The notes: generated by a model not told the origin, from the sequence alone. Positions 1,574 through 19,766 are shown, numbered from the stretch's first letter. The stretch is 25,389 nt of DNA from Pseudomonadota bacterium (GCA_043767805.1 JAYUGC010000147.1:1-25389), one strand, 5' to 3'. Numbers and translations: made by a program.

Positions 1574-1651
1574 GGCTATTCCTCGCCAAAGGTTTGAGGA
1601 AGGGGAACCTAGCGATAACCGCGTAATTCCGCAAGGCCCGCTCAAGTAAAG

Positions 1652-1774
1652 CTAAGATACCTGGCTGTATTTGAGGCCTTGGGAATTAGCCACCCACCGG
1701 TAGCCGTCGGACTCGAACTCGGCGAAAGCAGTTAGCGAAATGAGCGCGAGGACGGAGATGAGAAAACGAGGCAG
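1652..1774 (-). CDS. Possible small (40 aa) signal-peptide ORF or truncated gene remnant
   Basis: GGAGG then CTG start; (M)PRFLISVLALISLTAFA-EFESDGYRWVANSQGLKYSQVS-TAG. An alternative TTG start lies at 1786. Confidence 0.3.
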   Translation of the reverse strand: MPRFLISVLALISLTAFAEFESDGYRWVANSQGLKYSQVS

Positions 1775-1892
1775 GCGAGCCTCCAAAGAAAGAAGGCTAG
1801 GGGTGGGTGTTTGAGAGCGCAACTAGAAACGCCGGTGGTCCGGGGAGATTGCCGACCGCCCTTGGAGACGGGACAAAATCCAGGATTAGCCG

Positions 1893-1946
1893 GATTCTAG
1901 GCCCGGGGGAGGGCCTCCGGAGTCGGATTCCAGGCCGATTCCAGGC
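1893..1946. repeat. Helically phased direct repeats GATTC(C/T)AGGC, a possible operator
   Basis: Copies start at 1893, 1926 and 1937 (offsets 33 and 11 bp) in the divergent intergenic region. Confidence 0.4.
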
Positions 1947-1983
1947 TGGATCAGTACGTTTTTGCCGATCCATTCCATTTTTA

Positions 1984-2013
1984 TGGACTCGGGTCCGGAA
2001 ATTCGTATATAAC
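1984..2013 (+). promoter_or_regulatory. Putative sigma70 promoter giving a possibly leaderless mRNA
   Basis: TGGACT (1984-1989), N18, TATAAC (2008-2013); ATG 2021 follows 7 nt later with no Shine-Dalgarno sequence. Confidence 0.35.
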
Positions 2014-2020
2014 GCGATGC

Positions 2021-2653
2021 ATGATTTTCGGAAGTAAACTCTTCGTCGTGGAGGACGATCTGTCCCTCCAAGCGGCCGTTCAAGCGGTTTTCGGCATCCA
2101 TAACGATGTCGAGACGGCCTCCGACCTCGCGGCCGCTCGGGCTCGTTTGGGCGTCTCTCCTTTCGATGTCATCTTGCTCGATAAAGGCCTGCCGGATGGC
2201 GATGGCCTTAGTTTGATCGCGCCCTTGAGAGAGCATTATCCTTTCGCGGCCATTCTCGTGATGACCGGCAGCCGGGACTTCAACGCCGCCAGCAAGTGTA
2301 TAGCGGCGGGCGCTGACGACTACATCGTAAAATCGGAAACTCTCATTTCCGATCTCCTGGTACGCCTGCCGATCGTGCTTCACCACGCTTCCTTGCGAAG
2401 AACCGCGTCGCTCGTGCAGGCGATGCCGAGCCTTAAATTGCCCCAGGCCCAAACGGATCTCTCGTCGGAAAGCTATCGTCACTTTCTCGCCACCGCGGAA
2501 AAATCCTTTCTCAGCGGCGCCCTCGATCTTTGTGGCGGCGATGCCACTTTAGCCGCCGAAAAAATTGGCATGGCGAAAAGCACCATCTTCAAAAAGATTC
2601 TCGATTTCGGCATCGAGCGGCGCGGGATCCGCGGTAACCGAGGGAGGGCTTAA
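2021..2653 (+). CDS. Response regulator: receiver domain plus Fis-type HTH, no AAA+ domain
   Basis: VVEDD...DVILLDKGLPDGDG...VMTG...GADDYIVK receiver; C-terminal ALDLCGGDATLAAEKIGMAKSTIFKKI HTH. Confidence 0.88.
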   Translation: MIFGSKLFVVEDDLSLQAAVQAVFGIHNDVETASDLAAARARLGVSPFDVILLDKGLPDGDGLSLIAPLREHYPFAAILVMTGSRDFNAASKCIAAGADDYIVKSETLISDLLVRLPIVLHHASLRRTASLVQAMPSLKLPQAQTDLSSESYRHFLATAEKSFLSGALDLCGGDATLAAEKIGMAKSTIFKKILDFGIERRGIRGNRGRA

Positions 2654-2655
2654 CC

Positions 2656-3282
2656 ATGGCAGTATTGGCTTTTCTATATTCCGGAATCCTCCTCGGCCTC
2701 TCGCAGGGTTTTTCGCCCGGGCCTCACTCCGCCCTGGTGATTACCCAAACGCTTCGCTTTTCTCTCAAAGAGGGAATCAAAGTCGCGGTCGCTCCCATCG
2801 TGGCCACTATTCCTATATTGCTGCTCTGCGGGCCCATCGCAGCTCTTGCCGCTCGCGCTAATCTCGCTCTCGGCGCCATCTCGATCGTCGGCGCGCTCTT
2901 CTTGCTCAAGCTTGGCTGGGAAAATCTCTCGCTGCAAAATTTCATAGTCGAACCCGGCGCCACGGCCGAACCGGCTTCGTTCTGGCGAGGCGCCTTCACC
3001 GCGCTCCTCAGTCCTCATCCTTATCTTTTCTGGATCACCATCGGGACGCCCCAGCTGGTCAAGGGATGGGCGCTGACGCCCTGGACAGCCGTTCTCTTCT
3101 TTCTCGGCTTCATGACCCTTTTTGTTCTGGCGAAGGTAGCCTTGGCCCTGCTTTCCCTGAAGCTCAAGAAAGACACGAGCGCGAGCTCCATTCTTTTCAT
3201 AATGCGGGCCATGGGAATCGTCATGGCCGGCATTGGTCTCGCCGTCGGATGGGATGGACTGAAGTTGTTGGGGGTCGCATGA
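2656..3282 (+). CDS. LysE/RhtB-family amino acid/small-molecule exporter
   Basis: GFSPGPHSALVITQTLR, GALFLLKLGW, SFWRGAFTALLSPHPYLFW; several hydrophobic helices; GGAGG RBS. Confidence 0.9.
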   Translation: MAVLAFLYSGILLGLSQGFSPGPHSALVITQTLRFSLKEGIKVAVAPIVATIPILLLCGPIAALAARANLALGAISIVGALFLLKLGWENLSLQNFIVEPGATAEPASFWRGAFTALLSPHPYLFWITIGTPQLVKGWALTPWTAVLFFLGFMTLFVLAKVALALLSLKLKKDTSASSILFIMRAMGIVMAGIGLAVGWDGLKLLGVA

Positions 3283-5801
3283 AGCAGGAAGGTGTCTATC
3301 TCGTCGTTGGGGCAGGGCCCTGTGGGTTGACCATGGCGGGCTTACTGGCGCGTAGGGGTCACTCCGTCGTCGTCCTCGAAAAGCTGGCCTCGCCCGATCA
3401 CGCAGCTCGTTCTAACGATGAGAGAGCGATCAATCTCTCTCTTTCTCCGAGAGGCCTCTCGGTTTTGGCGAAGCTGGGCCTGGAGAAACAAATCAGGAAC
3501 GCGTCATTGCCGACCCCGGGCAGAATGGTCCACTTGCCCAGCGGGCAGCAGGTTTGGCAGCCCTATGGCCTCGGTAAAGAGGGAAGCCTTCTAACGGTCG
3601 CCCGAGAAGAGCTTCACCGGATTCTAAGAAACGGTTTGAGTCAGTTTCCGAACGTCGAGATTTGCTACGGGAGTGAAGTCGTTGCCATCGATAAGAGCTC
3701 CGGCTCCGTGACCTATAGGGAGCAGGGACGGGAAGCGCGGCTAACGCCTACGCTCACCGTCGGAACCGACGGAGCTTTTTCCAAAGTGCGGCAGCTCATG
3801 CACCGAGGCGAGTACGCGAGTTACCGTCAGACTTTCTTTGGATGGAGTTACAAGCAGGTAAACATCTGTTCCGCGTTCGATCCGAACGGCGTGCACATCT
3901 GGCCCGCGAAAGACGCGCTCATCGTCGCGTTGCCCAATTCCCGAGGAGGTTTTACCGCGAATCTGTTTCTGGAGCGGAGCTCCGCTACTTCGTTCCAGGC
4001 GCTGCAAGGTGCTCAAGATATGACCGCCTTTCTAGCCGATCGCTTTCCCGATCTGGCGTCTGTGGCTTCGAAGATGGCTTCGCAACTGGAGAGGAATCCG
4101 GAAAACCATATCGTTGAGACTTCCACCGATCGTTGGCACGTGGGCGACAAATTCGTTCTCGCCGGCGACTCCTGCCACGCGATGTACCATTTCTATGCTC
4201 AGGGTCTGAACACGGGGCTGGAAGATTGTGATGAGCTGGATCGGCGGCTTGCCCACCACGCGCGCGCCGAGGCGCTCTCGCGCTACCAACAGAGCCGTAA
4301 GCCGAGCGCGGATTCCATTTCCGAGCTGTCGCGAGCGAATTTCACCACTCTCAAAGACCGGGTGGCGTCGCCGCTGTACCACGCCCGCCTCGTTACGGAA
4401 CTTTGGTTAAACCAGGTGCTCGGAAAGTTTTGGCTCCCCACCTATCGCCTCATTTCCGACTCGGGCTTTTCCCAGTCCCGAGTCCGCCGCCGGCTCGCGT
4501 TGCGCCGATGGACGTTCACTTTGGCGGGATTACCTTTACTGGTGGGGTCTATGGCTATTTTTGTGACTATGAGCCGCGTGTTGCAGGCGCTCCGTTCCAA
4601 AGAACTTCCGCCGCCCTGTTTGCCGGAGCAGGAAGCGAGCCCGCTGAAGAAGCACTTCGCCTTTAAGTCGCTCTGCCTGATTTTTGGCGCTTCTCTACTC
4701 ATGGGCGCGGCTCCCAGCCAGAGAACGGTTCGGGTGGGACTTGCTTCCACGCTGTCCGACATTGGGACAAACTCGTCCATCCCTCACGGCGATTTCTTCC
4801 GGCGTGGCATTCAACTCGCCATCAAACATTCCGCAAAGACGCTTCGAGCGGCCGGGATCCGCATCGAGCTGAAGGATTACGATTACGGCAACGATCGCCT
4901 GAAGGTCATGGAAGTGGCGAAGAGCACGGTGGCGTCCGATGTCGCGGCGGTCATCGGGTACAACTTTTCCGATCACGCCATTCTCGCGGCCCCCATCCAT
5001 CAAAAAGGGAAGCTGGCCTTCATTACTCCCACCGCGACCGCGGACCGTGTTTCGGAGCTGGGCGAGTTCGTTCACCCCTTGTCTTTCAACAATGCCTTTC
5101 AGGCCCGGTTGCTCGCGGTCATTGCCCGGAAAGAAATGAAGGCCAAGAAAGTCTTCGCGGTAGTGGCGCAAGATTGCACCTACTGCCAGGATTTCGCCGC
5201 CGGCTTTGCGAAAAGCTTTGGAGAGCTTGGCGGAGAAGTGGTGACGCTACCGGTTCTCAAGGACGACACGAATTTCACCGGCGTCGTGCAGGAATATCAA
5301 AAGCGCGGGGGCAAGTCCGAGCTGATCTTCATTCCCAATCACGAAGTCGTTTCAGCGGCCATTATTCAGGCCTTTCTCAACGCCAAGATCAAAGCTCCGT
5401 TCTTGGGTGGCGATGGGTGGGCTAATTACGGAACCCGCATTTTTGAGTCCATGTTTCAGGAGAGAACCTTCACTGCTTTGGCCATCACGCATTGGGACAA
5501 GCAGATGGTGAATCGTTTCACCGCCAAGTTTCTTTCGGACTACGAGGCCGCAAACGATCAGGCCCCGAACATGACCGCGGCCATGGCCTACGATTCCATG
5601 CTCTTTCTGATTGAGGCCTTGAAGACTTGCCCCGCTTTGGATCGCGTCGCCATCGAGGCCTGTCTCAGCAAGCAAACCACCTTCGAAGGGGTGACGGGGT
5701 CGTACCGCTTCCCGAAACCAAATGCCGCTCCCGAAAAGAGCCTCGTCATCTTGAAACGCAAGAACCGCCGTTTCGAGTTCTTGAAAGTGGTATCGCCTTG
5801 A
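3279..5801 (+). CDS. Kynurenine 3-monooxygenase-like FAD monooxygenase (~3279-4640) in frame with a LivJ/LivK-type periplasmic amino-acid-binding domain (~4644-5801)
   Basis: ATG 3279 overlaps the LysE stop (ATGA). Monooxygenase motifs VVGAGPCG, RAINLSLSPRG, GRMVH, QPYG, DGAFSKVR, HIWP, GDSCH...QGLNTGLEDC. Binding-protein motifs RGIQLAI, AVIGYNFS, ITPTATA, FLGGDGW, AYDSM, FEGVTG. Confidence 0.85.
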   Translation: MKQEGVYLVVGAGPCGLTMAGLLARRGHSVVVLEKLASPDHAARSNDERAINLSLSPRGLSVLAKLGLEKQIRNASLPTPGRMVHLPSGQQVWQPYGLGKEGSLLTVAREELHRILRNGLSQFPNVEICYGSEVVAIDKSSGSVTYREQGREARLTPTLTVGTDGAFSKVRQLMHRGEYASYRQTFFGWSYKQVNICSAFDPNGVHIWPAKDALIVALPNSRGGFTANLFLERSSATSFQALQGAQDMTAFLADRFPDLASVASKMASQLERNPENHIVETSTDRWHVGDKFVLAGDSCHAMYHFYAQGLNTGLEDCDELDRRLAHHARAEALSRYQQSRKPSADSISELSRANFTTLKDRVASPLYHARLVTELWLNQVLGKFWLPTYRLISDSGFSQSRVRRRLALRRWTFTLAGLPLLVGSMAIFVTMSRVLQALRSKELPPPCLPEQEASPLKKHFAFKSLCLIFGASLLMGAAPSQRTVRVGLASTLSDIGTNSSIPHGDFFRRGIQLAIKHSAKTLRAAGIRIELKDYDYGNDRLKVMEVAKSTVASDVAAVIGYNFSDHAILAAPIHQKGKLAFITPTATADRVSELGEFVHPLSFNNAFQARLLAVIARKEMKAKKVFAVVAQDCTYCQDFAAGFAKSFGELGGEVVTLPVLKDDTNFTGVVQEYQKRGGKSELIFIPNHEVVSAAIIQAFLNAKIKAPFLGGDGWANYGTRIFESMFQERTFTALAITHWDKQMVNRFTAKFLSDYEAANDQAPNMTAAMAYDSMLFLIEALKTCPALDRVAIEACLSKQTTFEGVTGSYRFPKPNAAPEKSLVILKRKNRRFEFLKVVSP

Positions 5802-7588
5802 TTAAACCCTGCAAGCGGGCTTTCTCTTTAAAGAGCCAGATTTTGGCCATGACGCTTGGCTGTTTCGCCATTCTCGCGGGGAGCATCCTATGGGTCCAGC
5901 GGAGCTACATTCGCCAGCTGAAACTCGACGAGCTCGAAAAGGTCGGCTCGCTTCTGCTCGCTTCGGGCGAAAGAGAGACCGACGACCTCATTCCGGGAAT
6001 TTTACTCAAGGAGGAGCACCTGGCCCTGAAAATGCTTCTCGAACGAATCGCCTCGCGAGGGGACCTGAAGGAAGTGGATTTCGGGCAGCCTTCGGCTGAT
6101 TTTCTCCAGAAACAAAAAGGCTGTCACGTCGCTTCCCCGCGATCGTGGGTTTGTATCGACGTCGAAAAGAACGAAGTAGTCAGCTACCACCAGGCGGTCC
6201 TCGACGGTCAAATTCTCGGCGTGCTTCGTAAAGTGAAATCAGGCCCGAAGTACGCGCTCAGTGAAGCCCGCCGGCCCTTTCTCACCATTATCGGAGTTTT
6301 GATGCTCTGCCTGGTCGGATTGGTGGCGGGCGTTGCCCTCTTTCTCGACAGAGTCGTACGAGCCCCCTTGTTATCTCTCGGAAAAATATTGGAGCCGGCG
6401 CTCGCCGGAGAGGTTCCTCTGGATACCCCGCTCAGCCGGGTAAAGGAAATCAACTCGGTCATCGGGCAGGTGAAGGAGCTCGTCATTCGATCTCGCGACA
6501 ACCGAGCGAGGGCTCTGATTGGCGAGATGGCGGCCGAGGTAGCTCACGACATTCGATCTCCGCTCGCCGCCCTCGGTGTGGTGGCTGAGTTTAGCCCTGA
6601 GTTACCGGAAGACCGTAAGGCTCTCTTGCGCAATGCTTTGCAGCGCATTCGGCAGATAGCCGACGATTTGCTCGCTCGTCATGCCAAGATTGGATCCGTG
6701 AACGCGGAGGAAGCGAGTCAGCCCGCCTCGGCGGCTTACCCCGATCTCATTCTTCCTCTCTTGGAAGACGTCGTGGAGGAGAAGCGGCTCTCCGCGCACG
6801 GTAACCAGATCGAAATTCGCGTTCTTCCCGACGAAGCGGCCTATCAGCTTTTCGCCGCCATCGTTCCCGCGGAGCTCGAGCGGGTCGTGTCGAACCTGCT
6901 AAACAACGCCGTGGAATCTTTCGGGCCGAAGGGAGGATTAGTCGAGGTTCGCCTGAGTGGATCCGCGACTGGAATTAAGATCGAAGTCAAAGATAACGGC
7001 GGCGGCATCGCACCCGACGTGCTGCCTCGCCTCATGGAGTACGGATTTACCTCAGGGAAACCCGGAGGATCGGGCCTCGGTCTCTATCACGCCAAACGGC
7101 GCATCGAGGCGTGGGGTGGGACCCTGCAGATTCGATCGAGTGTGGGAGTGGGAACGGAAGTCGTGATCCAGTTGCCGAGATGCGACTCGCCGGCCTGGCA
7201 TGTGCCGGAGCTGGTCCTCGCGCCCGGAAGCGAGGTCGCGGTCATCGACGACGATCGCGGCATCCATCGGCGCTGGCTGGAACGTCTGGCGGACGTGATC
7301 CCGGCTTCGCAAATAAAGCACTTCTTGTCGCCCGACGCGTTTTTGGCCTGGTACCGTCAGCGGGATTTGACCACGGAGGCTCGTCTGCTTGTGGACTATA
7401 GCTTTCTGGGAGAAACTTTATCTGGTCTCGATCTCATCGAGAGGGAAGGGTTGGGAGCCCGGGCTTTCCTCGTCACGGGAATGCATCGAGACAAGACCTT
7501 GCTCCAGCGTTGCGAGCGGCTCGGAGTAGGTCTCATTTCAAAATCTGTTCTGGAATTCGTTCCGGTTCGCGTGGGAGCCAGTCAATGA
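5798..7588 (+). CDS. Membrane hybrid sensor histidine kinase (2 TM, HisKA, HATPase, C-terminal receiver)
   Basis: TTG 5798 overlaps the upstream stop (TTGA). H-box VAHDIRSPL, N-box SNLLNNA, DNGGGI, GSGLGL; receiver VIDDD...LLVDY...LVTG...ISK. Confidence 0.9.
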   Translation: MIKPCKRAFSLKSQILAMTLGCFAILAGSILWVQRSYIRQLKLDELEKVGSLLLASGERETDDLIPGILLKEEHLALKMLLERIASRGDLKEVDFGQPSADFLQKQKGCHVASPRSWVCIDVEKNEVVSYHQAVLDGQILGVLRKVKSGPKYALSEARRPFLTIIGVLMLCLVGLVAGVALFLDRVVRAPLLSLGKILEPALAGEVPLDTPLSRVKEINSVIGQVKELVIRSRDNRARALIGEMAAEVAHDIRSPLAALGVVAEFSPELPEDRKALLRNALQRIRQIADDLLARHAKIGSVNAEEASQPASAAYPDLILPLLEDVVEEKRLSAHGNQIEIRVLPDEAAYQLFAAIVPAELERVVSNLLNNAVESFGPKGGLVEVRLSGSATGIKIEVKDNGGGIAPDVLPRLMEYGFTSGKPGGSGLGLYHAKRRIEAWGGTLQIRSSVGVGTEVVIQLPRCDSPAWHVPELVLAPGSEVAVIDDDRGIHRRWLERLADVIPASQIKHFLSPDAFLAWYRQRDLTTEARLLVDYSFLGETLSGLDLIEREGLGARAFLVTGMHRDKTLLQRCERLGVGLISKSVLEFVPVRVGASQ

Positions 7589-9003
7589 ATCAAAATCTAG
7601 AACAGGCCCTATCTCGGTTGGAACCTCTCTCGCGCGAGCTCGAGCCCACGCCTTCTCAATTTTCCGGATGGATGCAAGAGGCGACGAGCTTCGCTTCCCA
7701 GTTTCTCGAAACTCTTCCCGAGCAACCGGCTCGTAAAGCTTTCAAAGGCGCGGACGTGTTTCGTGGCCCGATGCCCGCCAACCCGCGGAACCATCTCGAC
7801 GTATTTCGTGAGCTCGAGGAGAACACCCTTACCGCCGGACTCAATGCAGCGTCCCCTCGCTATATGGCGTTCGTCCCTCCAGGCGGAATTCCTTCGGCCG
7901 CGGTGGCGGATTTTCTCGCGGCGCTGACCAATCGCTATTCCGGTCTGTACGCGGCCTGTCCCGGCGCGGTTGAAGTCGAAAATGCCGCCGTGGGCTGGCT
8001 TCGCGACGTCGTCGGCTTTGGTCCTGGCGCGTGGGGCACTCTTTTGAGCGGAGGCACCCTCGGAGCGCTCGCCGCGCTGGTGGCGGCGCGGGATACGAGA
8101 TCACCTGAGCGTTGGGCCCGGGGCGTCGTTTATCGGACGTCCCAGTCCCATCATTCCTTGAGCAAATGTCTGAAGGTGGTGGGTCTCGGGCACATTGCCG
8201 TTAGAGAGATCGAAGTCGATGCCGAGTTTCGCATGAGCCCTCAGGCTTTAAGAGAGCAGATCTCCAAGGACAAGGCTACGGGCCTCGAGCCTTGGATTCT
8301 CATCGCCACGGCGGGAACCACGAACACGGGCGCGATTGATCCGCTTCCTGAGCTCGCCGTAGTGGCACGAGCCGAGGGACTTTGGTTCCACGTGGATGGC
8401 GCTTATGGCGGGCTTTTCATTCTGGCCGACTCCGCGAAGGAGGCGCTTGCTGCGATGAAGGAAGCGGACTCGTTGGTTCTCGATCCGCATAAGAGTCTGT
8501 TTCTGCCCTATGGTTGCGGCGCCGTGCTGCTCAAGCGCGGGGAGCTTCTCAACCAGGCGTTCTCCTACAGCCCCTCTTATTTACAAGATCTGGCTCAAGA
8601 TACGGATCGATCGCCTTCGGACTACTCTCCCGAAGGCACCCGCCATTTTCGAGGGCTGCGCATCTGGCTTGCGCTTCAGCTCCATGGCGTCTCCCGGTTT
8701 CAGGCGGCGCTCGAAGAAAAACTTTGCCTGGCCCGTTACGCCTTTGAGAAACTCTCGAGCGTAGCTGGCGTCGAAATAGGCCCGGCTCCGCAGTTGAGCT
8801 GCGTTACCTTCCGGCTCAAAGGAGAAGACAGCCGTACCGAATCTCTGATGAAAAGGGTCGCTCAGTCGGCGGAGTTCGCGTGCAGCTCGACTCAGCTTCG
8901 CGGCAGGTTTTTCGTGCGCCTTTGCATTCTCAATTTTCGCACGCACCGCGAGGATGTAGACCGCGTGATCGCGGATTTGACAGCCCAGTCGATCGGCCTG
9001 TGA
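7585..9003 (+). CDS. Group II PLP-dependent (aromatic) L-amino acid decarboxylase
   Basis: ATG 7585 (ATGA overlap). SGGT, ATAGTTNTGAIDPL, HVDGAYGG, DSLVLDPHK (PLP lysine), RGLRIW. Confidence 0.92.
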   Translation: MNQNLEQALSRLEPLSRELEPTPSQFSGWMQEATSFASQFLETLPEQPARKAFKGADVFRGPMPANPRNHLDVFRELEENTLTAGLNAASPRYMAFVPPGGIPSAAVADFLAALTNRYSGLYAACPGAVEVENAAVGWLRDVVGFGPGAWGTLLSGGTLGALAALVAARDTRSPERWARGVVYRTSQSHHSLSKCLKVVGLGHIAVREIEVDAEFRMSPQALREQISKDKATGLEPWILIATAGTTNTGAIDPLPELAVVARAEGLWFHVDGAYGGLFILADSAKEALAAMKEADSLVLDPHKSLFLPYGCGAVLLKRGELLNQAFSYSPSYLQDLAQDTDRSPSDYSPEGTRHFRGLRIWLALQLHGVSRFQAALEEKLCLARYAFEKLSSVAGVEIGPAPQLSCVTFRLKGEDSRTESLMKRVAQSAEFACSSTQLRGRFFVRLCILNFRTHREDVDRVIADLTAQSIGL

Positions 9004-9026
9004 CAAAAATCGTCACCGCAGACCGG

Positions 9027-9043
9027 TTGGCCTGGGCTTTGCG
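9027..9043 (+). promoter_or_regulatory. Possible sigma54 -24/-12 promoter upstream of the activator gene
   Basis: TTGGCCTGGGCTTTGCG has GG-N10-GC spacing with TGGC and TTGC; preceded by inverted repeat GTGAC-N7-GTCAC (9000-9016). Confidence 0.4.
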
Positions 9044-9114
9044 GAGTTCACTGGGCGTAGGCAGGCAACGAGCCTGTCTGGGCTCACGGAACCGTAGGTA
9101 AGATCGACGACTGT

Positions 9115-10485
9115 ATGGCAAAGAAGTCCCGAATTTTAGTTTGTGACGACGACGAGCTGGTGCACCAGTCGGTGAAGCTTTGCCTTGGGAAGCTTTACGA
9201 AGTGGCCCATGTATTCAACGGCGAAGAGGCCCTGCAACACGTGAAGACCCACGCCGTCGACGTTCTTTTGCTCGACGTTCAAATGAGAACCCCCGACGAG
9301 GGGCTCCGTTACCTCTCCCAGATAAAGAAGGCCGATGGGGACGTCATCATCCTGATGCGAAGCGCGATGACCGACTTCGGCACCGTGGTCGAGGCCATGA
9401 AACTGGGTGCGACCGATTATCTTCCTAAGGACGCGAGCCCTCCTGAGCTCAGCATCGCCATCGATCGCGCTCTCGAAATCCGCGAGACGCAGCTCAGGCG
9501 GCACCAGCAAAATTCCGAAGTGGAGACCTACCACAACCGGCACGTCATGGTGGGTGAGAGTAAGCCCGTCGAGGCTCTGCGACAGACTTTGAAGAAGGCC
9601 CGCAACGCGCACGCGAATACCGTCATCACCGGTGAGCCCGGCGTGGGCAAAGAAGTAGTGGCTCGGTTACTCCGCGGCGTCCTGCCGGACGGATCGCTGG
9701 CTCCCTTTGTCAGCGTCGATTCCTCGACCATTCAGAGCACCATGGCCGAGAGCCTGCTCTTCGGTCATGAAAAGGGCGCCTTCACCGGAGCCGATAAAAC
9801 CAAAAAAGGGTTATTCGAGGAGGCCGACGGGGGCATCATCTATTTCGACGAGATAGGCAACATGCCGCTCGACATTCAAGCGAAGCTCCTGCGGGCCGTT
9901 CAAGAAAAGGAAGTGTCTCGCCTCGGATCTTCCCGGACCATCCCTTTAGACTTTCGAGTCGTGTGCGCCACCAACCGCAACATGGATGAGATGGTCGCGG
10001 CCAAAGAATTTCGTTTCGATTTGCTCTCTCGACTCAGCGTAATCCCGATTCCTATTCCCGCGCTCAGGGATCGAAAGAGCGATATCCCGCTTCTCGTCGA
10101 GCATTTCTTGAAAAAATCCGCGGTGGGCGCGTCCTACAAAGTCCTTCCCGCGGCCATGGACATGCTCGTGCGCTACTCGTGGCCCGGAAACGTGCGCGAG
10201 CTTTCGAACGTGCTTACCTTCTGCCTTACCATGGTCGAGGGCGATACTATCGATGTGGCGGATCTTCCGGTGCGCATTCAAGAGTCGCAGCCCGTGGTGG
10301 CCAGCGAGAACCCGAGCGGATCGGGAGATTTTTACGATCAGGTCAAAGAATTCGAAAAAGCCATTCTCACCCGGGAGTTTGCGCGAGCGGGACACAACAT
10401 CGCTCAGCTGTCCCGGAATCTGAAGATGGATCGTTCTCATCTTTACGCGAAGCTTCGTAATTATGGGCTTCATACCAGCAAATGA
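9115..10485 (+). CDS. NtrC-family sigma54-dependent response regulator (REC-AAA+-HTH)
   Basis: Receiver CDDD...LLLDVQM; Walker A GEPGVGKE; ESLLFGHEKGAFTGA; Walker B YFDEIG; WPGNVREL; C-terminal HTH. Confidence 0.95.
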   Translation: MAKKSRILVCDDDELVHQSVKLCLGKLYEVAHVFNGEEALQHVKTHAVDVLLLDVQMRTPDEGLRYLSQIKKADGDVIILMRSAMTDFGTVVEAMKLGATDYLPKDASPPELSIAIDRALEIRETQLRRHQQNSEVETYHNRHVMVGESKPVEALRQTLKKARNAHANTVITGEPGVGKEVVARLLRGVLPDGSLAPFVSVDSSTIQSTMAESLLFGHEKGAFTGADKTKKGLFEEADGGIIYFDEIGNMPLDIQAKLLRAVQEKEVSRLGSSRTIPLDFRVVCATNRNMDEMVAAKEFRFDLLSRLSVIPIPIPALRDRKSDIPLLVEHFLKKSAVGASYKVLPAAMDMLVRYSWPGNVRELSNVLTFCLTMVEGDTIDVADLPVRIQESQPVVASENPSGSGDFYDQVKEFEKAILTREFARAGHNIAQLSRNLKMDRSHLYAKLRNYGLHTSK

Positions 10486-11089
10486 GATTCGGATTTTGGT
10501 GACCGCCGTGGCTCCGGCCGCGGATTTGACTCGTTTCCTTACGGAAGCGGAGCGGGAAGAGGAGAAAGGTTTCGCCAGCGAATCCGCTCGTGCTTTGTTT
10601 CTGACGGCCCGAATTTCGATCCGGCGAGTCCTGGGAGACCTGCTTCGCGTGGACCCTCTCGAAATTTCCCTGGCCCGTCGGCCGGAAGGTAAGCCGTATC
10701 TCCCGGCTCACCCGGATCTTTGCTTTAATGTTTCCCATTCCGGCGCGCTCGTTCTCATCGGGCTCAGTCAGGGCCGAGAGATTGGTGTGGATATCGAAAA
10801 GGTGAGGGAACGGCCTCGATGGCGCGAGCTCGCCGTTCGTTTCTTTTCTTTCAAGGAACAGGCCGCGACCCGGGATTTGGAGAGCTTTCTCCGTATATGG
10901 ACGAGGAAAGAGGCGTACCTCAAGCTGCGGGGTGGGGGAATCGATCGGGCACTCAATAGTTTCAGCGTGCTTGGGGAAGATTCCGAATTGAACGCTGTTT
11001 TAGTCCCGCTTACGGTTCCCGACGGCTACGTGGCGTCCCTGGCTGTCGACGGAAATCGAGCTATCGAGCTTAACGAAGGCCGAAAGTAA
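10463..11089 (+). CDS. Sfp-type 4'-phosphopantetheinyl transferase
   Basis: GKPYL, FNVSHSG, IGVDIE, WTRKEAYLK motifs. Confidence 0.93.
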   Translation: MGFIPANEIRILVTAVAPAADLTRFLTEAEREEEKGFASESARALFLTARISIRRVLGDLLRVDPLEISLARRPEGKPYLPAHPDLCFNVSHSGALVLIGLSQGREIGVDIEKVRERPRWRELAVRFFSFKEQAATRDLESFLRIWTRKEAYLKLRGGGIDRALNSFSVLGEDSELNAVLVPLTVPDGYVASLAVDGNRAIELNEGRK

Positions 11090-12104
11090 GCCAGAGACCA
11101 AAGCGCCCGGACTGCCGAGCGGCCCGCCCCCATTCCGTCGAGCCGTTGCCGCCGAGATGGCGCCCCTCGACGGTGAAGAACCATTCCCGCTGCTTCGCCC
11201 GAATGTTTTGCGTGTAGCCGAGCACGGTCAAGACACTTCCGTCATTCAGACTCGTGACCGATGTGAGAAACGGCGTGCTGCCCCCGTCTCCGCGCCGGAG
11301 ATCGGCAAACAAAATGTCTCGGCTATAAAAGCTTCCCGTTCCCCAGGCTGGCCGATGAAAGGCTCTCGACGTGGGAAAAGCGTAAGCATCCGAGCGGTCC
11401 ATAGGGCGCGCTTGGTTGCCGTGGCCATTGCGAAAGTATTCCACCGCGAGACGATAGGGAACCCACCGCGGGCTCCACTGAACACCGGTGAGCCAGTCGC
11501 ACCGAAGGCCGCCGCCGCTCGGCGGGGCATGGAGGTTTCCCTCCTGATACGAGAGCCATTCATCGGAAACTTGCTCGGTCATTCCCAAACCGACAAAGCG
11601 ATCGGCCACGAGGCCCCAAGTATCAACGATTTCCCCGCTGCGCTTGACCAGGAGGAAGGGACTCAGTCTCGCCCATTTATCGGTTTCCGAGACGACCACT
11701 CCGACTTTCGCACTCCACCGAGCATCGGGCATCCACTGAACCTGACCGAGCCACACTCCCTCCTGAGGTAAAAGCGGAGAGACGAGGCTCAGACCGCTCA
11801 GCGCGGGATTGCCGGGGCTCGTGAGCAAAGCGGTCGACTGATCGAACGTGCGCTTGCCGAGCGACCATTGAAAACTATCCGATGAGCGCTCATAGAAACT
11901 TTCCCAGAGCACGCACCCGGGAGGAGTCCTTTCCCCCTTGGTAACGACGGAGCACTGCCCCTCGACCTTGACGCGGTTATTCTCCTGGTCGTAAAGGAGC
12001 CGGCCTTTTCCCGTGAAGGCGCCTTGATCCGTGGACTCGGCCACAGAGCTGTAGCTCACTTCGGGAGCAACGTGCAGCTCTATCGCGGGAGAGGCGAAAA
12101 GCAT
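11070..12104 (-). CDS. Putative outer-membrane beta-barrel-like protein associated with the Lol-like exporter
   Basis: GGAGGAG RBS. Amphipathic aromatic-rich strands (WLTGVQWSP, LAVEYFRNGHG, FGLWLTFG); last gene of the ABC/LolA-like operon; no clear signal peptide. Confidence 0.55.
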   Translation of the reverse strand: MLFASPAIELHVAPEVSYSSVAESTDQGAFTGKGRLLYDQENNRVKVEGQCSVVTKGERTPPGCVLWESFYERSSDSFQWSLGKRTFDQSTALLTSPGNPALSGLSLVSPLLPQEGVWLGQVQWMPDARWSAKVGVVVSETDKWARLSPFLLVKRSGEIVDTWGLVADRFVGLGMTEQVSDEWLSYQEGNLHAPPSGGGLRCDWLTGVQWSPRWVPYRLAVEYFRNGHGNQARPMDRSDAYAFPTSRAFHRPAWGTGSFYSRDILFADLRRGDGGSTPFLTSVTSLNDGSVLTVLGYTQNIRAKQREWFFTVEGRHLGGNGSTEWGRAARQSGRFGLWLTFGLR

Positions 12105-12106
12105 GG

Positions 12107-14065
12107 CTATCTCCTCCCTACTCGGCCCGCGCTTTGCGACAGGCTTTCGGGATTGAAGAAGCTCTCCGGAAAAGTGTCCGGCTGAGCCGGGCCAAAAGAG
12201 ACTTGGGTGAAATCCCCGGTTCTCAAAGCATCTTCGATCTTCGCGCTGACGAGTCTTTTATCAGAGCCGTACTGATAGCGAACCGTTTTCAAAAGTTTTC
12301 CGGACAGGGCGAAGAGTTTGGCTCCGGGCGGGGGCTTGCAACCGGTTCCCATGTCGATTTCAATGCGTCCGTAAGCGGCTTGGGAATTACCCGAGCGAGG
12401 CTTAAGAACGAGCGTGCCCTTGGCGAAAGACTGTGCTTCGTAATCGTCGGCAAAACGGACGCCGGCCACGTCCGCATTCGACGCCTGGCCGATGAGTCTT
12501 TGGGCGGGCGAGATACGGATGGGCTTTCTCATATTCTCTTTTTGCATCCACATCGCGCTTCCGGACGAAAGAACCGCTATGCGGCTACCGGCCGGATCGG
12601 AAATGGCGACGGCGAGAAAGCGATTCGTCTTGTTCGCGACGAGATAGGTCACCGCTTCGCCTTGGGACGGGGTAAACCGAACTTCGAGGCGAAAATCTCC
12701 CGGGGGAATTTGACGAAGCGAGTCCACGAAGGCCATCTGAGAGCTGGCATCCCTGGGATTACACTGAGCGTGCGCGGGAGAGGGGGCGAAAGACGCCGCG
12801 AGAATGCCCGAAGCGAGTAACCGCAGAGCTCCGGAAAGGCGCGCCGAGAGAGAACGGCTCGCCAAGGTGCGGGCGCTTAGCCAAGAGGCGAGAGCGGTGC
12901 TCATTAGCGTAACGATCAGCACGGCAAAAGAGCCCGTCCAATCGAGCAGAAATTGAAGGTGATATCCTTCGGAAGATCCCGGAGGAGGCGGCATCGGCAG
13001 CCCGCCCGCGAGCCGCACCAGGTACGACAAGGCGCCCGCGGCGGCGACCCCCGCGATACCCGCGACAAGGCCTAGCAAAGCGCCTTCCCAGAGGATGAGG
13101 CGAGACAGTTCCCAGTCCTGCATGCCGATGGCTTGGAGGGTGGCCATCTCCGCTCTTCTTTCGAAAAGCGCCATCATCAGGGTGTTGGTCACCGCGAGCA
13201 GGGTCAGAAGAAAGAACATCGCTTCCATGAACGAAAAAAGGCGGCCGTAGAGGGCTCGCACCGACTGATAGTAATCCGCAAGGTCTTCCCAGCGTTTGAC
13301 GACGAGATTCGGAGCACCCGATGCCAGCATTTCCTTCACTGCGACGTGAGCCGAGGCGGTGTCTTCCGTGTTTTTTAGGCCGATGACGAGGCCATCCACC
13401 AGGTTGGTGTCATAGAGGCGGAGCGCGGTTTCCACTGGGAGGATCAGACTTACGGCATCGAGCTGCTTCGAATCGGATTCGGTCAAGCCTGCCACGGTAA
13501 CGTCCATGGCATTGGTTCGCCCTGAGTCCGTCGAGACGAGAAGGGACACGGAATCTCCCACTCGCGCGCCGATGCGGTCCGCGAGAACGCGGCCGAGCAG
13601 CACTCCCTCAGGACGTTCGGGATCCAGGCCTTCTCCTTCGACGATGCTAGTGAGGGAAGCCATGCGGGAAAACGAGTCGGGTTCCACCGCGTAGCCGGAA
13701 AAAATATCCGAGCGATCGGACGTTCCCACGATGCCGGTGACCTTGCGCCGCGGGGAAAGGGACTCGAGTTTGGAGGCGAGAGCCGGGTTGTTCCGCAGTT
13801 CGCGCGTGATCCGTTCCAGCTCCGAGACGGCGAGGCGGTGCTGCTCGGGGACCGCTCCGTCGAAGTAGCCTTGTGCGGCGATTTGAAGGTGGCCGTTACC
13901 GGAGTGTGAAAACCGCTCCGCGAGACCCCAATGGGAAAACTGAACGAAACCATAGAGCATCAAGGTGCAAGTGGTTCCGAGTGCGATACCGCCGAGCGTG
14001 AGCCCAGTGCGGCGCTGATTTCGACTGAGATTGAGGAGGGCCATTTTAAAGAGCGTCTTGTTCAT
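12107..14065 (-). CDS. FtsX/LolE-like ABC permease fused to a LolA-like (outer-membrane lipoprotein-sorting) domain
   Basis: Permease motifs NLSRNQRRTGLT, VKRWEDLA, NTLMMALFERRAEMATLQAIG, MPPPPG. After ~aa 433, MWMQKENMRKPIRISPAQRLIGQASNADV and SGKLLKT, typical of the LolA-like family. Confidence 0.85.
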   Translation of the reverse strand: MNKTLFKMALLNLSRNQRRTGLTLGGIALGTTCTLMLYGFVQFSHWGLAERFSHSGNGHLQIAAQGYFDGAVPEQHRLAVSELERITRELRNNPALASKLESLSPRRKVTGIVGTSDRSDIFSGYAVEPDSFSRMASLTSIVEGEGLDPERPEGVLLGRVLADRIGARVGDSVSLLVSTDSGRTNAMDVTVAGLTESDSKQLDAVSLILPVETALRLYDTNLVDGLVIGLKNTEDTASAHVAVKEMLASGAPNLVVKRWEDLADYYQSVRALYGRLFSFMEAMFFLLTLLAVTNTLMMALFERRAEMATLQAIGMQDWELSRLILWEGALLGLVAGIAGVAAAGALSYLVRLAGGLPMPPPPGSSEGYHLQFLLDWTGSFAVLIVTLMSTALASWLSARTLASRSLSARLSGALRLLASGILAASFAPSPAHAQCNPRDASSQMAFVDSLRQIPPGDFRLEVRFTPSQGEAVTYLVANKTNRFLAVAISDPAGSRIAVLSSGSAMWMQKENMRKPIRISPAQRLIGQASNADVAGVRFADDYEAQSFAKGTLVLKPRSGNSQAAYGRIEIDMGTGCKPPPGAKLFALSGKLLKTVRYQYGSDKRLVSAKIEDALRTGDFTQVSFGPAQPDTFPESFFNPESLSQSAGRVGRR

Positions 14066-14733
14066 GCCAGTCTCCCGTCTATTAAGAGGATTTGCCGGTC
14101 GGCGCGATTAGCGAGTCGCGTCTCGTGGGTAACGAGAAGAAGCGCCGCCTTCCACTGCCCACAGAGATCGAACAATAAATCGATGACCTGCTCACCGCTT
14201 GCGGCGTCGAGGTTGGCCGTTGGCTCGTCGGCTAGGATGAGCCGCGGGCGATTGATGAGCGCTCTGGCGAGCGCGACGCGTTGGCGTTGGCCGCCGCTGA
14301 GGGTCGCGGCGCGCTGATTGGCCTGGGCGCCAAGGCCGATGCGTTCCAAAAGGTTTTGCGCCTGGGCGTGGGCTTCACGAGGGTCGGTACGTTTCAGAAG
14401 AGCGGGCAACACCACGTTCTCCAGCGCCGTGAGTACCGGAACCAAATGAAAATGCTGAAACACGAAACCCAAACCGTCTCGGCGAAACAGAGTCTTCTCC
14501 TTGGGTGAAAGAGTGTGGAGCGCTTTTCCTTCGAACCATACTTCTCCACAATTCGGATCCTCGATGAGACCCGCGACCTGAAGGGCCGTTGATTTTCCGG
14601 AGCCGCTGGGTCCGGTAAGGGCCACTTTTTCTCCCGCTTTCACCTGCAGACTGAGCCCGCGCAGGGCGGTGACCTCGGTGTTGACCCCGTTCCCCATGCG
14701 GTAGCGTTTCGTGATTTGGCGAAGCTCGAGCAC
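14062..14733 (-). CDS. ABC transporter ATP-binding protein (LolD/MacB type)
   Basis: GPSGSGKS, GFVFQHFHL, LSGGQRQRVA, ILADEPTANLD, VTHE. Confidence 0.95.
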   Translation of the reverse strand: MLELRQITKRYRMGNGVNTEVTALRGLSLQVKAGEKVALTGPSGSGKSTALQVAGLIEDPNCGEVWFEGKALHTLSPKEKTLFRRDGLGFVFQHFHLVPVLTALENVVLPALLKRTDPREAHAQAQNLLERIGLGAQANQRAATLSGGQRQRVALARALINRPRLILADEPTANLDAASGEQVIDLLFDLCGQWKAALLLVTHETRLANRADRQILLIDGRLA

Positions 14734-14734
14734 G

Positions 14735-15247
14735 TTACTTGTCTCCCTTCAAGCGGACTAGAAGTCGTTCCATGCGCGCGGCTTCAGCTTCAAGCTTCTG
14801 CTGACGCGCGATTTGCAGCGCTTGCCGAGCGTCTTCCTGCGCGATCTCCGACTTTTTGAAAAGAGACGGGAGCACTGCGTAGACCTCGGCCCGATTCATC
14901 AAGGCGATGAGCTGAACCTTGGGATCCCGGTCGGCCTTGGCCTTTCGAACGCTACGATCCAAAAGAGGAAAGGCATCGGCGAGGTATCTCAGCTTGGCGT
15001 TCGCATCTTCCACATGACGACAACGCATCGCCGCCATCGCGCCCGCGAAGGACGCCCAAAGCACTTTATCTTTTTGCGCCACGAGGCGCAGGTATCCGTC
15101 TTCCAAAGCCGTGAGTGCTTTTTCGCCTTTCAGGCCTTCGGCCTGCTGCCTATGACGCTCGAAGATCTCCCGAGGGTTTTCCGTCGAGGCGAACACCGGC
15201 AGGTAGACCAGCAGAGAGACCAGCAGAAGACAGAGGAGACGTTTCAT
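14735..15247 (-). CDS. Secreted alpha-helical (TPR-like) hypothetical protein
   Basis: Signal peptide MKRLLCLLLVSLLVYLPVFA; Ala/Leu-rich helices; ATGA-coupled to the ACP gene. Confidence 0.7.
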   Translation of the reverse strand: MKRLLCLLLVSLLVYLPVFASTENPREIFERHRQQAEGLKGEKALTALEDGYLRLVAQKDKVLWASFAGAMAAMRCRHVEDANAKLRYLADAFPLLDRSVRKAKADRDPKVQLIALMNRAEVYAVLPSLFKKSEIAQEDARQALQIARQQKLEAEAARMERLLVRLKGDK

Positions 15248-15528
15248 TGGCCCACCAAGAAATCGACGATGGTGTTGACCGAGCGAAAGACACCCTTTTG
15301 GTTCTCCCCGACCATGACGTTGAACTCCTGCTCCAAACCGACGATGAGCTCCAGCGCGTCGATGGAATCAAGCGCGAGGCCCATGCCGAAGAGAGGAGCG
15401 TCGTTGTCGATCTCAGACGGAGATAAGGCCAGGTTGAGCTGGCGGATCATCATGGTCTTGACCGCCTCCGTAATCGCCTTTCGCTGAATCAGATCCGAGG
15501 GGGTAACGAACGCCAGTGAAGTTTCCAT
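15244..15528 (-). CDS. Acyl carrier protein
   Basis: 94 aa; APLFGMGLALDSIDALEL phosphopantetheine motif; AAGGA RBS. Confidence 0.93.
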   Translation of the reverse strand: METSLAFVTPSDLIQRKAITEAVKTMMIRQLNLALSPSEIDNDAPLFGMGLALDSIDALELIVGLEQEFNVMVGENQKGVFRSVNTIVDFLVGQ

Positions 15529-15952
15529 AAGTCGGTTTCCTTTCCTTGAGAGTTAATTGCCTTTGCCATACCCCTTGCACGGAGCTGGGGAGACGAAGGG
15601 CCAGTTTTTGATCTTTGATAGCGGCCAGGGTGAAAGTCGCTTCCACCAGGCAATCCGCTGAGCCGCTAGCCAATACTTTCTGAACCAGTTGAATTTTCGC
15701 CAGCGGCGGGCTCGTGAGCTCGCAGGTGACTCGGTATTTCGTTCCCGGGCGAGCGGGCCTTCTGAACCGGATTTCAGAATTGACGACGAGAAAGCAGTAG
15801 CCATCCCGGTGAAGGGCTTCCAATTCCACGCCCATGGCTTCAACGAAAGCGATGCGGGCCGCCTCGAACCACAGGAAGTAAACGCTGTGATGGAGGACGC
15901 CGTAGCGATCGATCTCGTTGAAGCGAGGAACCATTTCGATCTGAAAGCTCAC
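15413..15952 (-). CDS. YbgC/4HBT-type hotdog acyl thioesterase
   Basis: RFNEIDRYGVLHHSVYFLWFEAAR, IRFRRPAR; GTGA-coupled to the KS gene; C-terminal tail overlaps the ACP gene by 116 nt. Confidence 0.88.
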   Translation of the reverse strand: MSFQIEMVPRFNEIDRYGVLHHSVYFLWFEAARIAFVEAMGVELEALHRDGYCFLVVNSEIRFRRPARPGTKYRVTCELTSPPLAKIQLVQKVLASGSADCLVEATFTLAAIKDQKLALRLPSSVQGVWQRQLTLKERKPTYGNFTGVRYPLGSDSAKGDYGGGQDHDDPPAQPGLISV

Positions 15953-18429: not shown

Positions 18430-18431
18430 AA

Positions 18432-19532: not shown

Positions 19533-19576
19533 AGTGTTTTCCTTTCGTGAAGTGCCAATTCCCATTGATTCCAGAT

Positions 19577-19592
19577 TGCAACGGCGGTGCCA
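19577..19592 (-). promoter_or_regulatory. Sigma54 -24/-12 promoter of the leftward (GcvT-KS-TE-ACP-export) operon
   Basis: Minus strand reads TGGCACCGCCGTTGCA, matching TGGCAC-N5-TTGCW, ~45 nt upstream of ATG 19532. Confidence 0.85.
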
Positions 19593-19645
19593 GGGGGCGG
19601 TGAGCCTAATGGCCGACGATTCAAGAGGTTAGGTTGGCGGGGAAA

Positions 19646-19674
19646 ACCTACAGCTGTAGGTGGGAGCCCCTACA
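19646..19674. promoter_or_regulatory. Candidate enhancer (UAS) between the divergent promoters
   Basis: Perfect 16-bp palindrome ACCTACAGCTGTAGGT (19646-19661), overlapping TGTAGG-N8-CCTACA (19655-19674). Confidence 0.6.
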
Positions 19675-19724
19675 ATCGGAGGGAAAAGAGCTCCTCCACA
19701 AGGCCAAAGCGCCGCGAACTTTCG

Positions 19725-19740
19725 TGGCACAACGCTTGCT
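19725..19740 (+). promoter_or_regulatory. Sigma54 -24/-12 promoter of the rightward (FabG-FabZ-GNAT-FabD) operon
   Basis: TGGCACAACGCTTGCT matches TGGCAC-N5-TTGCW; followed by GAGGA RBS and ATG 19767. Confidence 0.88.
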
Positions 19741-19766
19741 TTGGTGCTGTTCCGAGGAATTTTCTT

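Follow-up and report, generated by a model that had tools for sequence, protein, structure and literature searches.

Positions 2021 to 10485 of a 25,389 nt contig from a Pseudomonadota bacterium (GCA_043767805.1, JAYUGC010000147.1:1-25389) carry a plus-strand gene set whose best reading, at roughly even odds (about 0.5), is a make-export-sense loop built around a kynurenine-derived amine. The window, by which we mean this entire 25.4-kb contig of a 4.5-Mb draft genome, was scanned for open reading frames (ORFs; 24 in all), which were compared with Pfam and NCBIfam; the relatives used are Bdellovibrionota, including, where named, one that shares the family Pseudobdellovibrionaceae. We prefer the loop because it accounts together for an enzyme that acts on a metabolite of the cell itself, an ever-present exporter, a transporter-less binding protein predicted to dock on a kinase and a sigma54 output, and because the same pattern is repeated with two unrelated enzyme/exporter pairs, sometimes hard-wired by fusion. 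By sequence comparison the interval appears to be one member of an undescribed Bdellovibrionota cassette family. All its members would share a core, made up of a distinctive binding protein of LivJ fold and a membrane-bound histidine kinase, and most would have a sigma54 activator as well. Upstream lies what appears to be one of two alternative enzyme and exporter pairs: either LysE together with a membrane-anchored paralogue of kynurenine monooxygenase (KMO), or EamA together with a small radical-SAM enzyme.

In the proposed circuit, the KMO paralogue would act at the membrane to 3-hydroxylate L-kynurenine from the housekeeping pathway, a decarboxylase would turn the hydroxylated product into a kynurenamine-type amine, and LysE would export it. 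A periplasmic binding domain, tethered to the membrane through its fusion to the enzyme, would capture the amine and, when loaded with ligand, alter kinase activity in one direction or the other. The phospho-signal would then pass to an NtrC-type activator, and perhaps also to a receiver-helix-turn-helix (HTH) protein; the activator would bind a palindrome between divergent sigma54 promoters and turn on a type II fatty-acid/polyketide-like lipid cluster.

Operon layout and the fusion protein

An earlier note made from the DNA alone (the original prediction) had described a tightly coupled run of LysE exporter, KMO-like hydroxylase, LivJ-type binding domain, hybrid kinase and aromatic decarboxylase, followed by an NtrC-type activator. 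ORF, Pfam and NCBIfam analysis found the listed genes within 2021-10485, all on the plus strand and tightly coupled through start/stop overlaps, with two amendments: the first gene is a receiver/HTH regulator that had not been mentioned, LysE being the second, and the hydroxylase and the binding domain, both present, form a single ORF. The features of the operon are as follows.

2021..2653, plus strand: response regulator, the operon's first gene, with a receiver (PF00072, 1.1e-16), a probable Fis-type HTH and no AAA+ domain
2656..3282, plus strand: LysE-family exporter, 208 aa (PF01810, 44.3 bits against a cut-off of 25.6)
3279..5801, plus strand: 840-aa fusion ORF with KMO-like and LivJ-type domains (FAD_binding_3, 8e-31; Peripla_BP_6, 3e-29)
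3279..4514, plus strand: KMO-paralogue domain (FAD monooxygenase) of the fusion (PF01494, 8e-31)
4515..4712, plus strand: linker between the fusion domains, with two hydrophobic segments (translation, DNA and hydropathy)
4725..5801, plus strand: Peripla_BP_6 (LivJ-fold) solute-binding domain of the fusion (PF13458, 3e-29, 103.1 bits against a cut-off of 31.7)
5798..7588, plus strand: sensor histidine kinase, 596 aa, TTG start (HisKA, HATPase_c)
7585..9003, plus strand: group II pyridoxal phosphate (PLP) decarboxylase, probably of aromatic-amino-acid type, 472 aa (PF00282, 5e-50, 170.6 bits against a cut-off of 27)
9115..10485, plus strand: NtrC-type sigma54 activator with REC, AAA+ with GAFTGA, lid and HTH_8 (PF00158, 1.4e-54; PF00072, 2e-20; PF25601; PF02954)
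10463..11089, plus strand: Sfp/HetI-type 4'-phosphopantetheinyl transferase (PPTase; PF01648, PF22624; HetI 4.8e-25, below cut-off)

The spacing between 2021 and 9003, read from the sequence, consists of a 2-nt gap followed by ATGA, TTGA and ATGA overlaps, in which the LysE stop overlaps the fusion ATG, the fusion stop overlaps the kinase TTG and the kinase stop overlaps the decarboxylase ATG. A 111-nt gap separates the decarboxylase from the activator gene, whose 3' end shares 23 nt with the PPTase gene. The operon's own promoter was not located in a sigma70 and terminator scan of 1600-11200, where sites were no commoner than in shuffles. As the original prediction had stated, there is no cognate Liv-type permease among the 24 ORFs; nor is there an ATPase of that type. 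The C-terminal 90 aa of the first protein match HTH_8 (PF02954) weakly, below cut-off (E 0.004), and align with the NtrC HTH at 414-452 (E 0.066). Five hydrophobic segments were found in LysE by a simple hydropathy scan. In a PADLOC defence-system search eight of nine cassette proteins had no match, and the activator matched generic RtcR/PspF AAA+ models only.

The fusion is real. No stop codon separates its KMO-like and Peripla_BP_6 parts in the DNA, contigs from three runs of one study span 3000-6000 with zero differences or indels, and the run that carries no flag as a possible source spans 3136-5668 in four pieces, fusion junction included, again with zero differences or indels. Fusions of the same type are present in two metagenome proteins, one of 847 aa with 44-45% identity across 100% of the query (P0004, whose source contig was not recovered in the metagenome scan) and one of 842 aa with 30% identity across query residues 9-822 (P0011). 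A third protein, of 389 aa, has 74% identity across the junction in two stretches (P0008); it looks like a fragment and was given little weight. A word-based protein search at near length yielded five proteins, and an exhaustive protein search revealed the remaining fusions. Members of the same binding-protein family are also fused to radical-SAM enzymes via a single transmembrane segment (TM) in four proteins (P0013, P0014, P0042 and P0052). Separately, we noted KMO homologues fused to an ABC exporter (P0021, 1034 aa) and, in P0113, P0126 and P0097, to cyclase-family (kynurenine-formamidase-type) domains (690 and 701 aa) or a nonribosomal peptide synthetase condensation domain (845 aa).

The hydrophobic segments of the linker cover residues 413-431 and 460-478, the latter preceded by KKH; the first looks like the tail anchor of a KMO, and the second like a signal peptide or anchor kept from a binding protein. 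The window enzyme would in this respect resemble mammalian KMO, which carries a C-terminal membrane anchor (PMC7862291).

The enzymes and their presumed product

When the N-terminal domain of the fusion was searched against the PDB, each of the top 10 matches was a KMO (best 4.2e-48). The carboxylate of L-kynurenine is held in the Pseudomonas fluorescens enzyme (PfKMO) by R84, Y98, N369 and Y404 (PMC6376250), and the equivalent residues of the window protein are R82, Y96, N354 and Y389, an intact tetrad. Relative to PfKMO, the hydrophobic pocket shows identical or conservative residues at all five positions, and the domain has the same fold and the same four carboxylate residues as the KMO structures from P. 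fluorescens, yeast, rat and human. The full tetrad is kept in four of the six cassette KMO-like enzymes. Despite this kinship, the window enzyme differs from pathway KMO in falling outside the clade that adjoins tryptophan 2,3-dioxygenase (TDO), in having genes for an exporter and a sensor alongside its own, and in being fused to a binding domain. A KMO tree, which took in nine of the 11 stand-alone KMO-like loci (L012 and L016 were left out), placed all six cassette enzymes opposite the housekeeping copies across a branch with 100/99 support. The KMO-like genes at those 11 loci of relatives (L002, L007-L016), which have no LysE, binding protein or kinase within flanks of about 1.5 kb, are treated as pathway copies. 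From these comparisons, the window gene is a second, fast-evolving copy and not an orthologue of the pathway enzyme.

The housekeeping KMO gene of the same genome directly precedes the TDO gene (G000:C14:18391-20760), and kynureninase, 3-HAO and a cyclase-family gene are clustered on a third contig (G000:C122:15415-19646). Judged by its gene content, the genome can supply kynurenine via a separate housekeeping pathway split over two contigs.

The label 'aromatic' given to the decarboxylase in the original prediction is plausible, its best solved relative being 4OBU (4e-65), the tryptophan decarboxylase of Ruminococcus gnavus (PMC6411801). The next solved relatives were a desferrioxamine-pathway decarboxylase and DOPA decarboxylases. 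In NCBIfam a model for diaminobutyrate decarboxylase matched best, with 183 bits where the cut-off is 900, and no equivalog cut-off was reached. The PLP lysine motif DPHK lies at 300-303. Decarboxylation of 3-hydroxykynurenine would give 3-hydroxykynurenamine, and the idea of a hydroxylated aromatic amine is consistent with the intact tetrad, the housekeeping kynurenine pathway, the similarity of the decarboxylase to a tryptophan decarboxylase and the exporter that always stands beside the enzyme. A compound of the predicted type is known from mammalian cells, where 3-hydroxy-L-kynurenamine, the decarboxylated form of 3-hydroxykynurenine, is a bioactive amine (PMC8295276). No bacterial producer or receptor of 3-hydroxykynurenamine was found in the literature, judged from titles only.

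Recurrence of the cassette and predicted docking of its receptor

A profile of the binding domain was searched in 401 Bdellovibrionota genomes, and the loci were fetched and typed by tblastn. The matches were bimodal, with 18 at E <=1e-118 in 15 of the 401 genomes and the rest at >=1e-64; a quick tree separated the family from generic LivJ-like paralogues as a clade with support of 100, and its kinase-associated members share invariant ATADR, DCxYCQ and GDGW motifs in alignments. A kinase gene is adjacent to the binding-protein gene in all 18 genome loci, of which four are of KMO type (three genomes), 12 of radical-SAM type (11 genomes) and two bare. LysE is present in 4/4 KMO-type loci. EamA is present in 8/8 radical-SAM loci whose contig reaches upstream, the other four ending at the radical-SAM gene.

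The original prediction had named co-occurrence in homologous loci as a check. KMO-like gene, LysE, binding protein and kinase do recur together in three other loci (L017 and L018, both in G013, and L019), although the decarboxylase does not. The LysE genes that adjoin the KMO paralogue there have 36-44% identity to the window LysE. G013, the family-level relative, carries the set twice (activator, KMO-like gene, LysE, binding protein, kinase, SDR, a protein of about 300 aa of no assigned family and an HTH_3 protein), both copies being divergent from VirB2/TrbC and VirB4/TraC genes, and L019 comprises KMO-like gene, LysE, GNAT, binding protein and kinase (36% identity, full length). The third enzyme thus varies, being a decarboxylase in the window only and an SDR or a GNAT protein in the other KMO-type loci, which suggests that each cassette may make a different derivative.

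In the radical-SAM genome loci the order is EamA exporter, small radical-SAM enzyme, binding protein, GNAT (in some), kinase and sigma54 activator. In this sister cassette (L109-L120, L027-L034; for example L033:8230-14389) the enzyme has about 230 aa and a CxxxCxxC motif, and the GNAT protein is an Acetyltransf_3 member. No NCBIfam equivalog was found for the enzyme, and its best match, to a viperin-like model (1e-11), was far below cut-off. A metagenome scan returned 218 relatives, of which 80 were kept; the 16 closest, with at least 30% identity, comprise seven loci of radical-SAM type, none of KMO type and nine that are cut by a contig end or hold binding protein and kinase only.

Several cassettes lie beside genes for conjugation. 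VirB4 or coupling-protein genes were present in the fetched stretch of seven of the 18 genome loci, and type IV secretion system (T4SS) genes stand beside two metagenome radical-SAM loci; this repeated siting beside VirB4, pilin or coupling-protein genes suggests that conjugation may be signal-gated. Conjugative type IV genes (VirB2/TrbC pilin, VirB4/TraC, coupling protein/TraU) occupy L017:2515-5669, L018:1530-4724, L033:16782-19773 and L027:15753-19001, and L109, L111, L115, L118 and L120 are further cassettes beside type IV secretion genes.

With start/stop overlaps in the window, fusions conserved at 30-45% identity and recurrence at 18 loci in 15 genomes, the possibility that these genes are fortuitous neighbours without shared function retains almost no probability. 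If the fusion were a receptor-enzyme, ligand occupancy in the periplasm would directly gate the hydroxylase (or radical-SAM enzyme) in the cytoplasm, with the kinase as an output in parallel. This would explain why two unrelated kinds of enzyme occur in the same enzyme-TM-binding domain arrangement, and the binding domain also matches PF01094 (2.5e-14), the receptor-family ligand-binding region that heads receptor guanylate cyclases. Against it, the enzyme and the binding protein are separate genes in three of the four KMO-type and all 12 radical-SAM genome loci, so that fusion is optional, and the linker is poorly conserved between homologues; we consider direct gating quite improbable.

The kinase consists of a TM, a periplasmic domain of about 127 aa, a second TM, a linker, an H-box (H250), HATPase and a divergent C-terminal receiver. 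The periplasmic domain has no Pfam match, and E72, L81, C109 and C119 are invariant in the alignment. The kinase had been called a hybrid, a label for which Pfam gave no support, finding only HisKA and HATPase_c and no receiver; in a set of 24 proteins, however, a profile built from nine homologous kinase C-termini matched the receiver of NtrC (E 5.6e-7), and only by way of such a divergent receiver would the label stand.

Contact between the binding domain and the kinase, another check named beforehand, came out favourably in a model of the complex. Kinase residues 34-160 (9-row alignment) and the binding domain (6-row alignment) were modelled together with our own alignments supplied, giving an ipSAE of 0.85 (0.83-0.86 in three runs), whereas none of three controls exceeded 0.00. 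At least 97% of contacts are common to the runs, and pLDDT of the partner is at least 89. Of 157 solved complexes 116 came up to the ipSAE mark, as did 2 of 215 mismatched pairs; these counts are rough given our own alignments. The modelled interface includes the family-invariant ATADR and DCxYCQ motifs of the binding protein and the stretch around E72 and L81 of the kinase. The model supports docking of the binding domain onto the periplasmic domain of the kinase.

What such a receptor would detect is where the main rival to the loop arises. The binding protein and kinase could respond to some compound resembling an amino acid that comes from prey or from the surroundings, and KMO, decarboxylase and LysE would then be a metabolic or detoxifying response under shared regulation. 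Among solved structures the binding domain is closest to proteins that bind amino acids for uptake systems (4GNR and 3TD9, about 1e-22), two sites (L107/L021 and L121) have the binding protein and kinase with neither enzyme nor exporter, and the known binding-protein-dependent kinases mostly sense nutrients (PMC8050422). This explanation does not account for the covalent fusion of enzyme to binding domain in three KMO and four radical-SAM cases, for an enzyme that is always accompanied by an exporter and not an importer, with no uptake permease in the window, or for an enzyme substrate that is available within the cell, and we judge it unlikely.

Putative sigma54 output and the lipid operons

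The activator was correctly predicted to be of NtrC type, having REC, Sigma54_activat and lid domains, GAFTGA at 221-226 and a Walker A motif at 173. Like NtrC-class enhancer-binding regulators in general it combines REC, AAA+ with GAFTGA and HTH, and sigma54 promoters lie within its reach. The neighbouring sigma54 operons of the original prediction were also borne out, since TGGCAC-N5-TTGC occurs perfectly at two divergent sites in the window where 0.05 would be expected by chance. The sites of interest are as follows.

19578..19592, minus strand: perfect sigma54 -24/-12 promoter, 0 mismatches, preceding the minus-strand operon 11070-19565
19646..19661, no strand: palindrome of 16 bp without mismatch, ACCTACAGCTGTAGGT, halfway between the promoters; a further half-site, the third, lies at 19667-19674
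19725..19739, plus strand: perfect sigma54 promoter, 0 mismatches, preceding the plus-strand operon 19767-25389
9028..9043, plus strand: weak sigma54-like site (9/12) in the 111-nt gap before the activator gene

The palindrome, a candidate enhancer to which the activator may bind, is unique in the window even when three mismatches are allowed (none occurs before 2021, for example). From their proximity, we infer that the window activator acts on the two perfect promoters. The site at 9028-9043 might allow autoregulation of the activator; it is a lead only, because many 9/12 sites are also found in coding DNA.

The minus-strand operon encodes, in order, a GCV_T-like protein, KS-CLF, a thioesterase, ACP, a protein of no assigned family, an ABC ATPase, a MacB-LolA fusion and a further unassigned protein. 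The plus-strand operon encodes a membrane protein, FabG, FabZ, an unassigned protein, a FeeM-like acyl-amino-acid synthase, an acyltransferase and another unassigned protein. The FeeM-like domain (22108-23301) matches PF21926 at 8.9e-7 and 29.3 bits against a cut-off of 27. The first plus-strand gene more likely starts at ATG 19767 than at the ORF start 19587, because the sigma54 promoter lies inside the mechanical ORF 19587-20276 and GAGGA precedes 19767; the GCV_T-like gene likewise more probably starts at ATG 19532, with AAGGA upstream, than at 19565.

In line with the head-group alternative of the original prediction, this gene content raises the possibility that the cassette supplies a building block, with the FeeM-like synthase N-acylating the aromatic amine with a fatty acyl chain made by the sigma54 operons and the two-component system merely regulating the lipid. 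In its favour, the window holds a FeeM-like domain, a dedicated ACP, KS-CLF, FabG, FabZ, acyltransferase and thioesterase, the PPTase gene is co-transcribed with the activator, and the decarboxylase is unique to the window locus. However, KMO, LysE, binding protein and kinase stand together in three loci without FeeM or fatty-acid genes, the decarboxylase is translationally coupled to the kinase and not placed in the sigma54 operons, and the lipid cluster has its own LolCDE/LolA-like exporter, which would leave LysE without a role. We regard building-block supply as decidedly unlikely, and it would in any case be compatible with the make-export-sense loop.

Several neighbouring genes deserve description in their own right. 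The MacB-LolA fusion is a 652-aa ORF (12107-14065, minus strand) that combines a MacB/LolCE-type permease (MacB_PCD, FtsX) with a C-terminal LolA-like domain, an unusual arrangement; it adjoins a LolD-like ATPase and presumably serves the lipid product. At 15949-18429 (minus strand) an 826-aa protein is made up of two ketosynthase-like halves (KS and a PRK06519-like half), and the GCV_T-like protein (18432-19565, minus strand), of aminomethyltransferase fold, is the first gene of the minus-strand sigma54 operon. To the left of the cassette operon lie minus-strand genes for a protein of 366 aa whose thioredoxin/redoxin-like matches are weak and fall short of the cut-offs (3-1100) and a 176-aa protein without a family match (1104-1634).

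A comparable arrangement was found in L019: some 2.4 kb beyond the kinase gene there are two sigma54 sites (11/12 each) in divergent orientation, ahead of different biosynthetic operons. A switch of the same kind would appear to serve a different, amino-acid-derived product there. The operons extend over L019:13157-20838, with EamA and ATP-grasp genes on one side of the sites and, on the other, genes for glutamate mutase E and S, a fatty-acid-desaturase-like protein, aspartate-semialdehyde dehydrogenase and an amino-acid kinase.

Relation to known systems and weighing of the loop

The original prediction had likened the locus to Vibrio LuxP/LuxQ/LuxO. The Vibrio circuit (LuxP/LuxQ/LuxU/LuxO, with LuxS as synthase) and the window share a transporter-less binding protein, here presumably periplasmic too, encoded beside a membrane kinase that is, or here seems to be, a hybrid, an NtrC-type sigma54 activator as output and a dedicated enzyme that makes, or here would make, the ligand. 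Membership of the Lux family did not survive comparison of the parts. LuxP belongs to Peripla_BP_4 and the sensor of LuxQ is a LuxQ-periplasm (dCache-like) domain (PMC8050422), whereas the window binding domain is of Peripla_BP_6/ANF_receptor type, with no Peripla_BP_4 match reported by Pfam, and the kinase sensor is the domain of about 127 aa without a Pfam match. There is no counterpart to LuxU in the form of an Hpt at the locus, the kinase receiver being seen by family profile only, and the activator, which is below every NCBIfam equivalog cut-off, scores 259.7 bits against 800 for the LuxO model and can be placed in the NtrC class only. Unlike the Vibrio autoinducer-2 (AI-2) circuit, the presumed synthase, exporter and receptor are in one operon here, and the presumed synthase is fused to the receptor. 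On these comparisons the resemblance to LuxP/LuxQ/LuxO appears to be one of logic only.

Solute-binding proteins also dock on the periplasmic domain of a kinase in TorT/TorS, XylFII/LytS and HptA/HptS, whose genes adjoin signalling and not transporter genes, and Peripla_BP_6 is listed with a chemoreceptor (BasB/BasT) and transporters only (both from the part of PMC8050422 seen). Those three systems differ from the window in sensing outside nutrients or respiratory substrates and in having no linked biosynthetic enzyme or exporter. With LivJ-type importers the window shares the Peripla_BP_6 fold; it differs from them in having no cognate LivHMGF permease/ATPase nearby and a kinase as neighbour instead. 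The cassette is a variant of binding-protein-dependent two-component signalling, in which the new elements relative to the literature are a KMO paralogue or radical-SAM enzyme as presumed synthase, a co-encoded exporter and natural synthase-receptor fusions. No description of a cassette of KMO or radical-SAM enzyme with exporter, binding protein and kinase was found in the literature, judged mostly from titles.

As regards the chemistry, the window can be compared with the Pseudomonas quinolone signal (PQS), a quorum signal that draws on the tryptophan/kynurenine pathway and whose late hydroxylation is carried out by the flavin monooxygenase PqsH. A tryptophan/kynurenine-derived signal and a flavin monooxygenase would be common to both. 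The sensing parts differ, PQS being an alkyl-quinolone sensed by a cytoplasmic LysR-type regulator, and the PQS system is not known to involve a binding protein or kinase, a sigma54 activator or an exporter of the LysE type.

A number of observations weigh against the make-export-sense loop with a kynurenine-derived amine. On the enzyme side, both G013 enzymes have H in place of the carboxylate-contacting N, and a decarboxylase is found in 0/3 of the other KMO-type loci (L017, L018 and L019), so that the amine cannot be the common signal of the family. On the sensor side, the KMO-type binding proteins do not form one clade in a quick tree (two changes, with 13 of 33 forks unresolved), and receptor and enzyme have therefore not simply co-diverged; binding protein and kinase also stand without an enzyme at the two loci mentioned above, hence the sensor pair can work with a signal not made next door. 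As for the phosphorelay and output, no Hpt is encoded on this contig although the kinase bears a receiver (the genome has three Hpt domains, all within frames of 370-1017 aa), no sigma54 activator was found within the 20.9 kb of sequence covering L019, and a search around the type IV secretion genes of sister loci (G013 and radical-SAM) found no suitably placed sigma54 site of at least 10/12.

Topology is a further difficulty of the same kind. All three KMO fusions carry two hydrophobic segments between the domains, which, if both span the membrane, would put the binding domain in the cytoplasm; a periplasmic placement requires one of them to be non-spanning. By hydropathy, the separate KMO paralogues of G013 have one C-terminal TM, the housekeeping KMOs have none and the radical-SAM fusions have exactly one. 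Two TMs were predicted for rat KMO too, which actually has one plus a helix that runs along the membrane (PMC7862291), and by analogy a periplasmic location of the binding domain is plausible.

Taken as a whole, the original prediction is partly supported: the checks that it had proposed came out mostly in its favour, and Lux membership and recurrence of the decarboxylase were the parts that failed. Beyond the window, and more tentatively, as a proposition to which we give somewhat less than an even chance, the Bdellovibrionota may possess a family of signalling cassettes, each with its own synthase (a KMO paralogue or a radical-SAM enzyme, with a diversifying tailoring enzyme), exporter and receptor-kinase, that serve as portable density or kin switches for conjugative T4SS genes and sigma54 metabolite clusters, the signal of the window being of 3-hydroxykynurenamine type, a class from which no bacterial autoinducer is known. 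The enzyme-receptor fusions would act as natural 'Rosetta stone' links that pair an enzyme product with its binding protein. A cassette that is self-contained in about 7 kb, with a clean sigma54 read-out, lends itself to testing in a heterologous host and might provide an orthogonal signalling part. If the loop is true, it would add to bacteria a new signal chemistry, kynurenine-derived and with a second, radical-SAM-derived class, together with a new receptor family, and would place the circuit in a mostly predatory phylum in which no such circuit was found in the literature.

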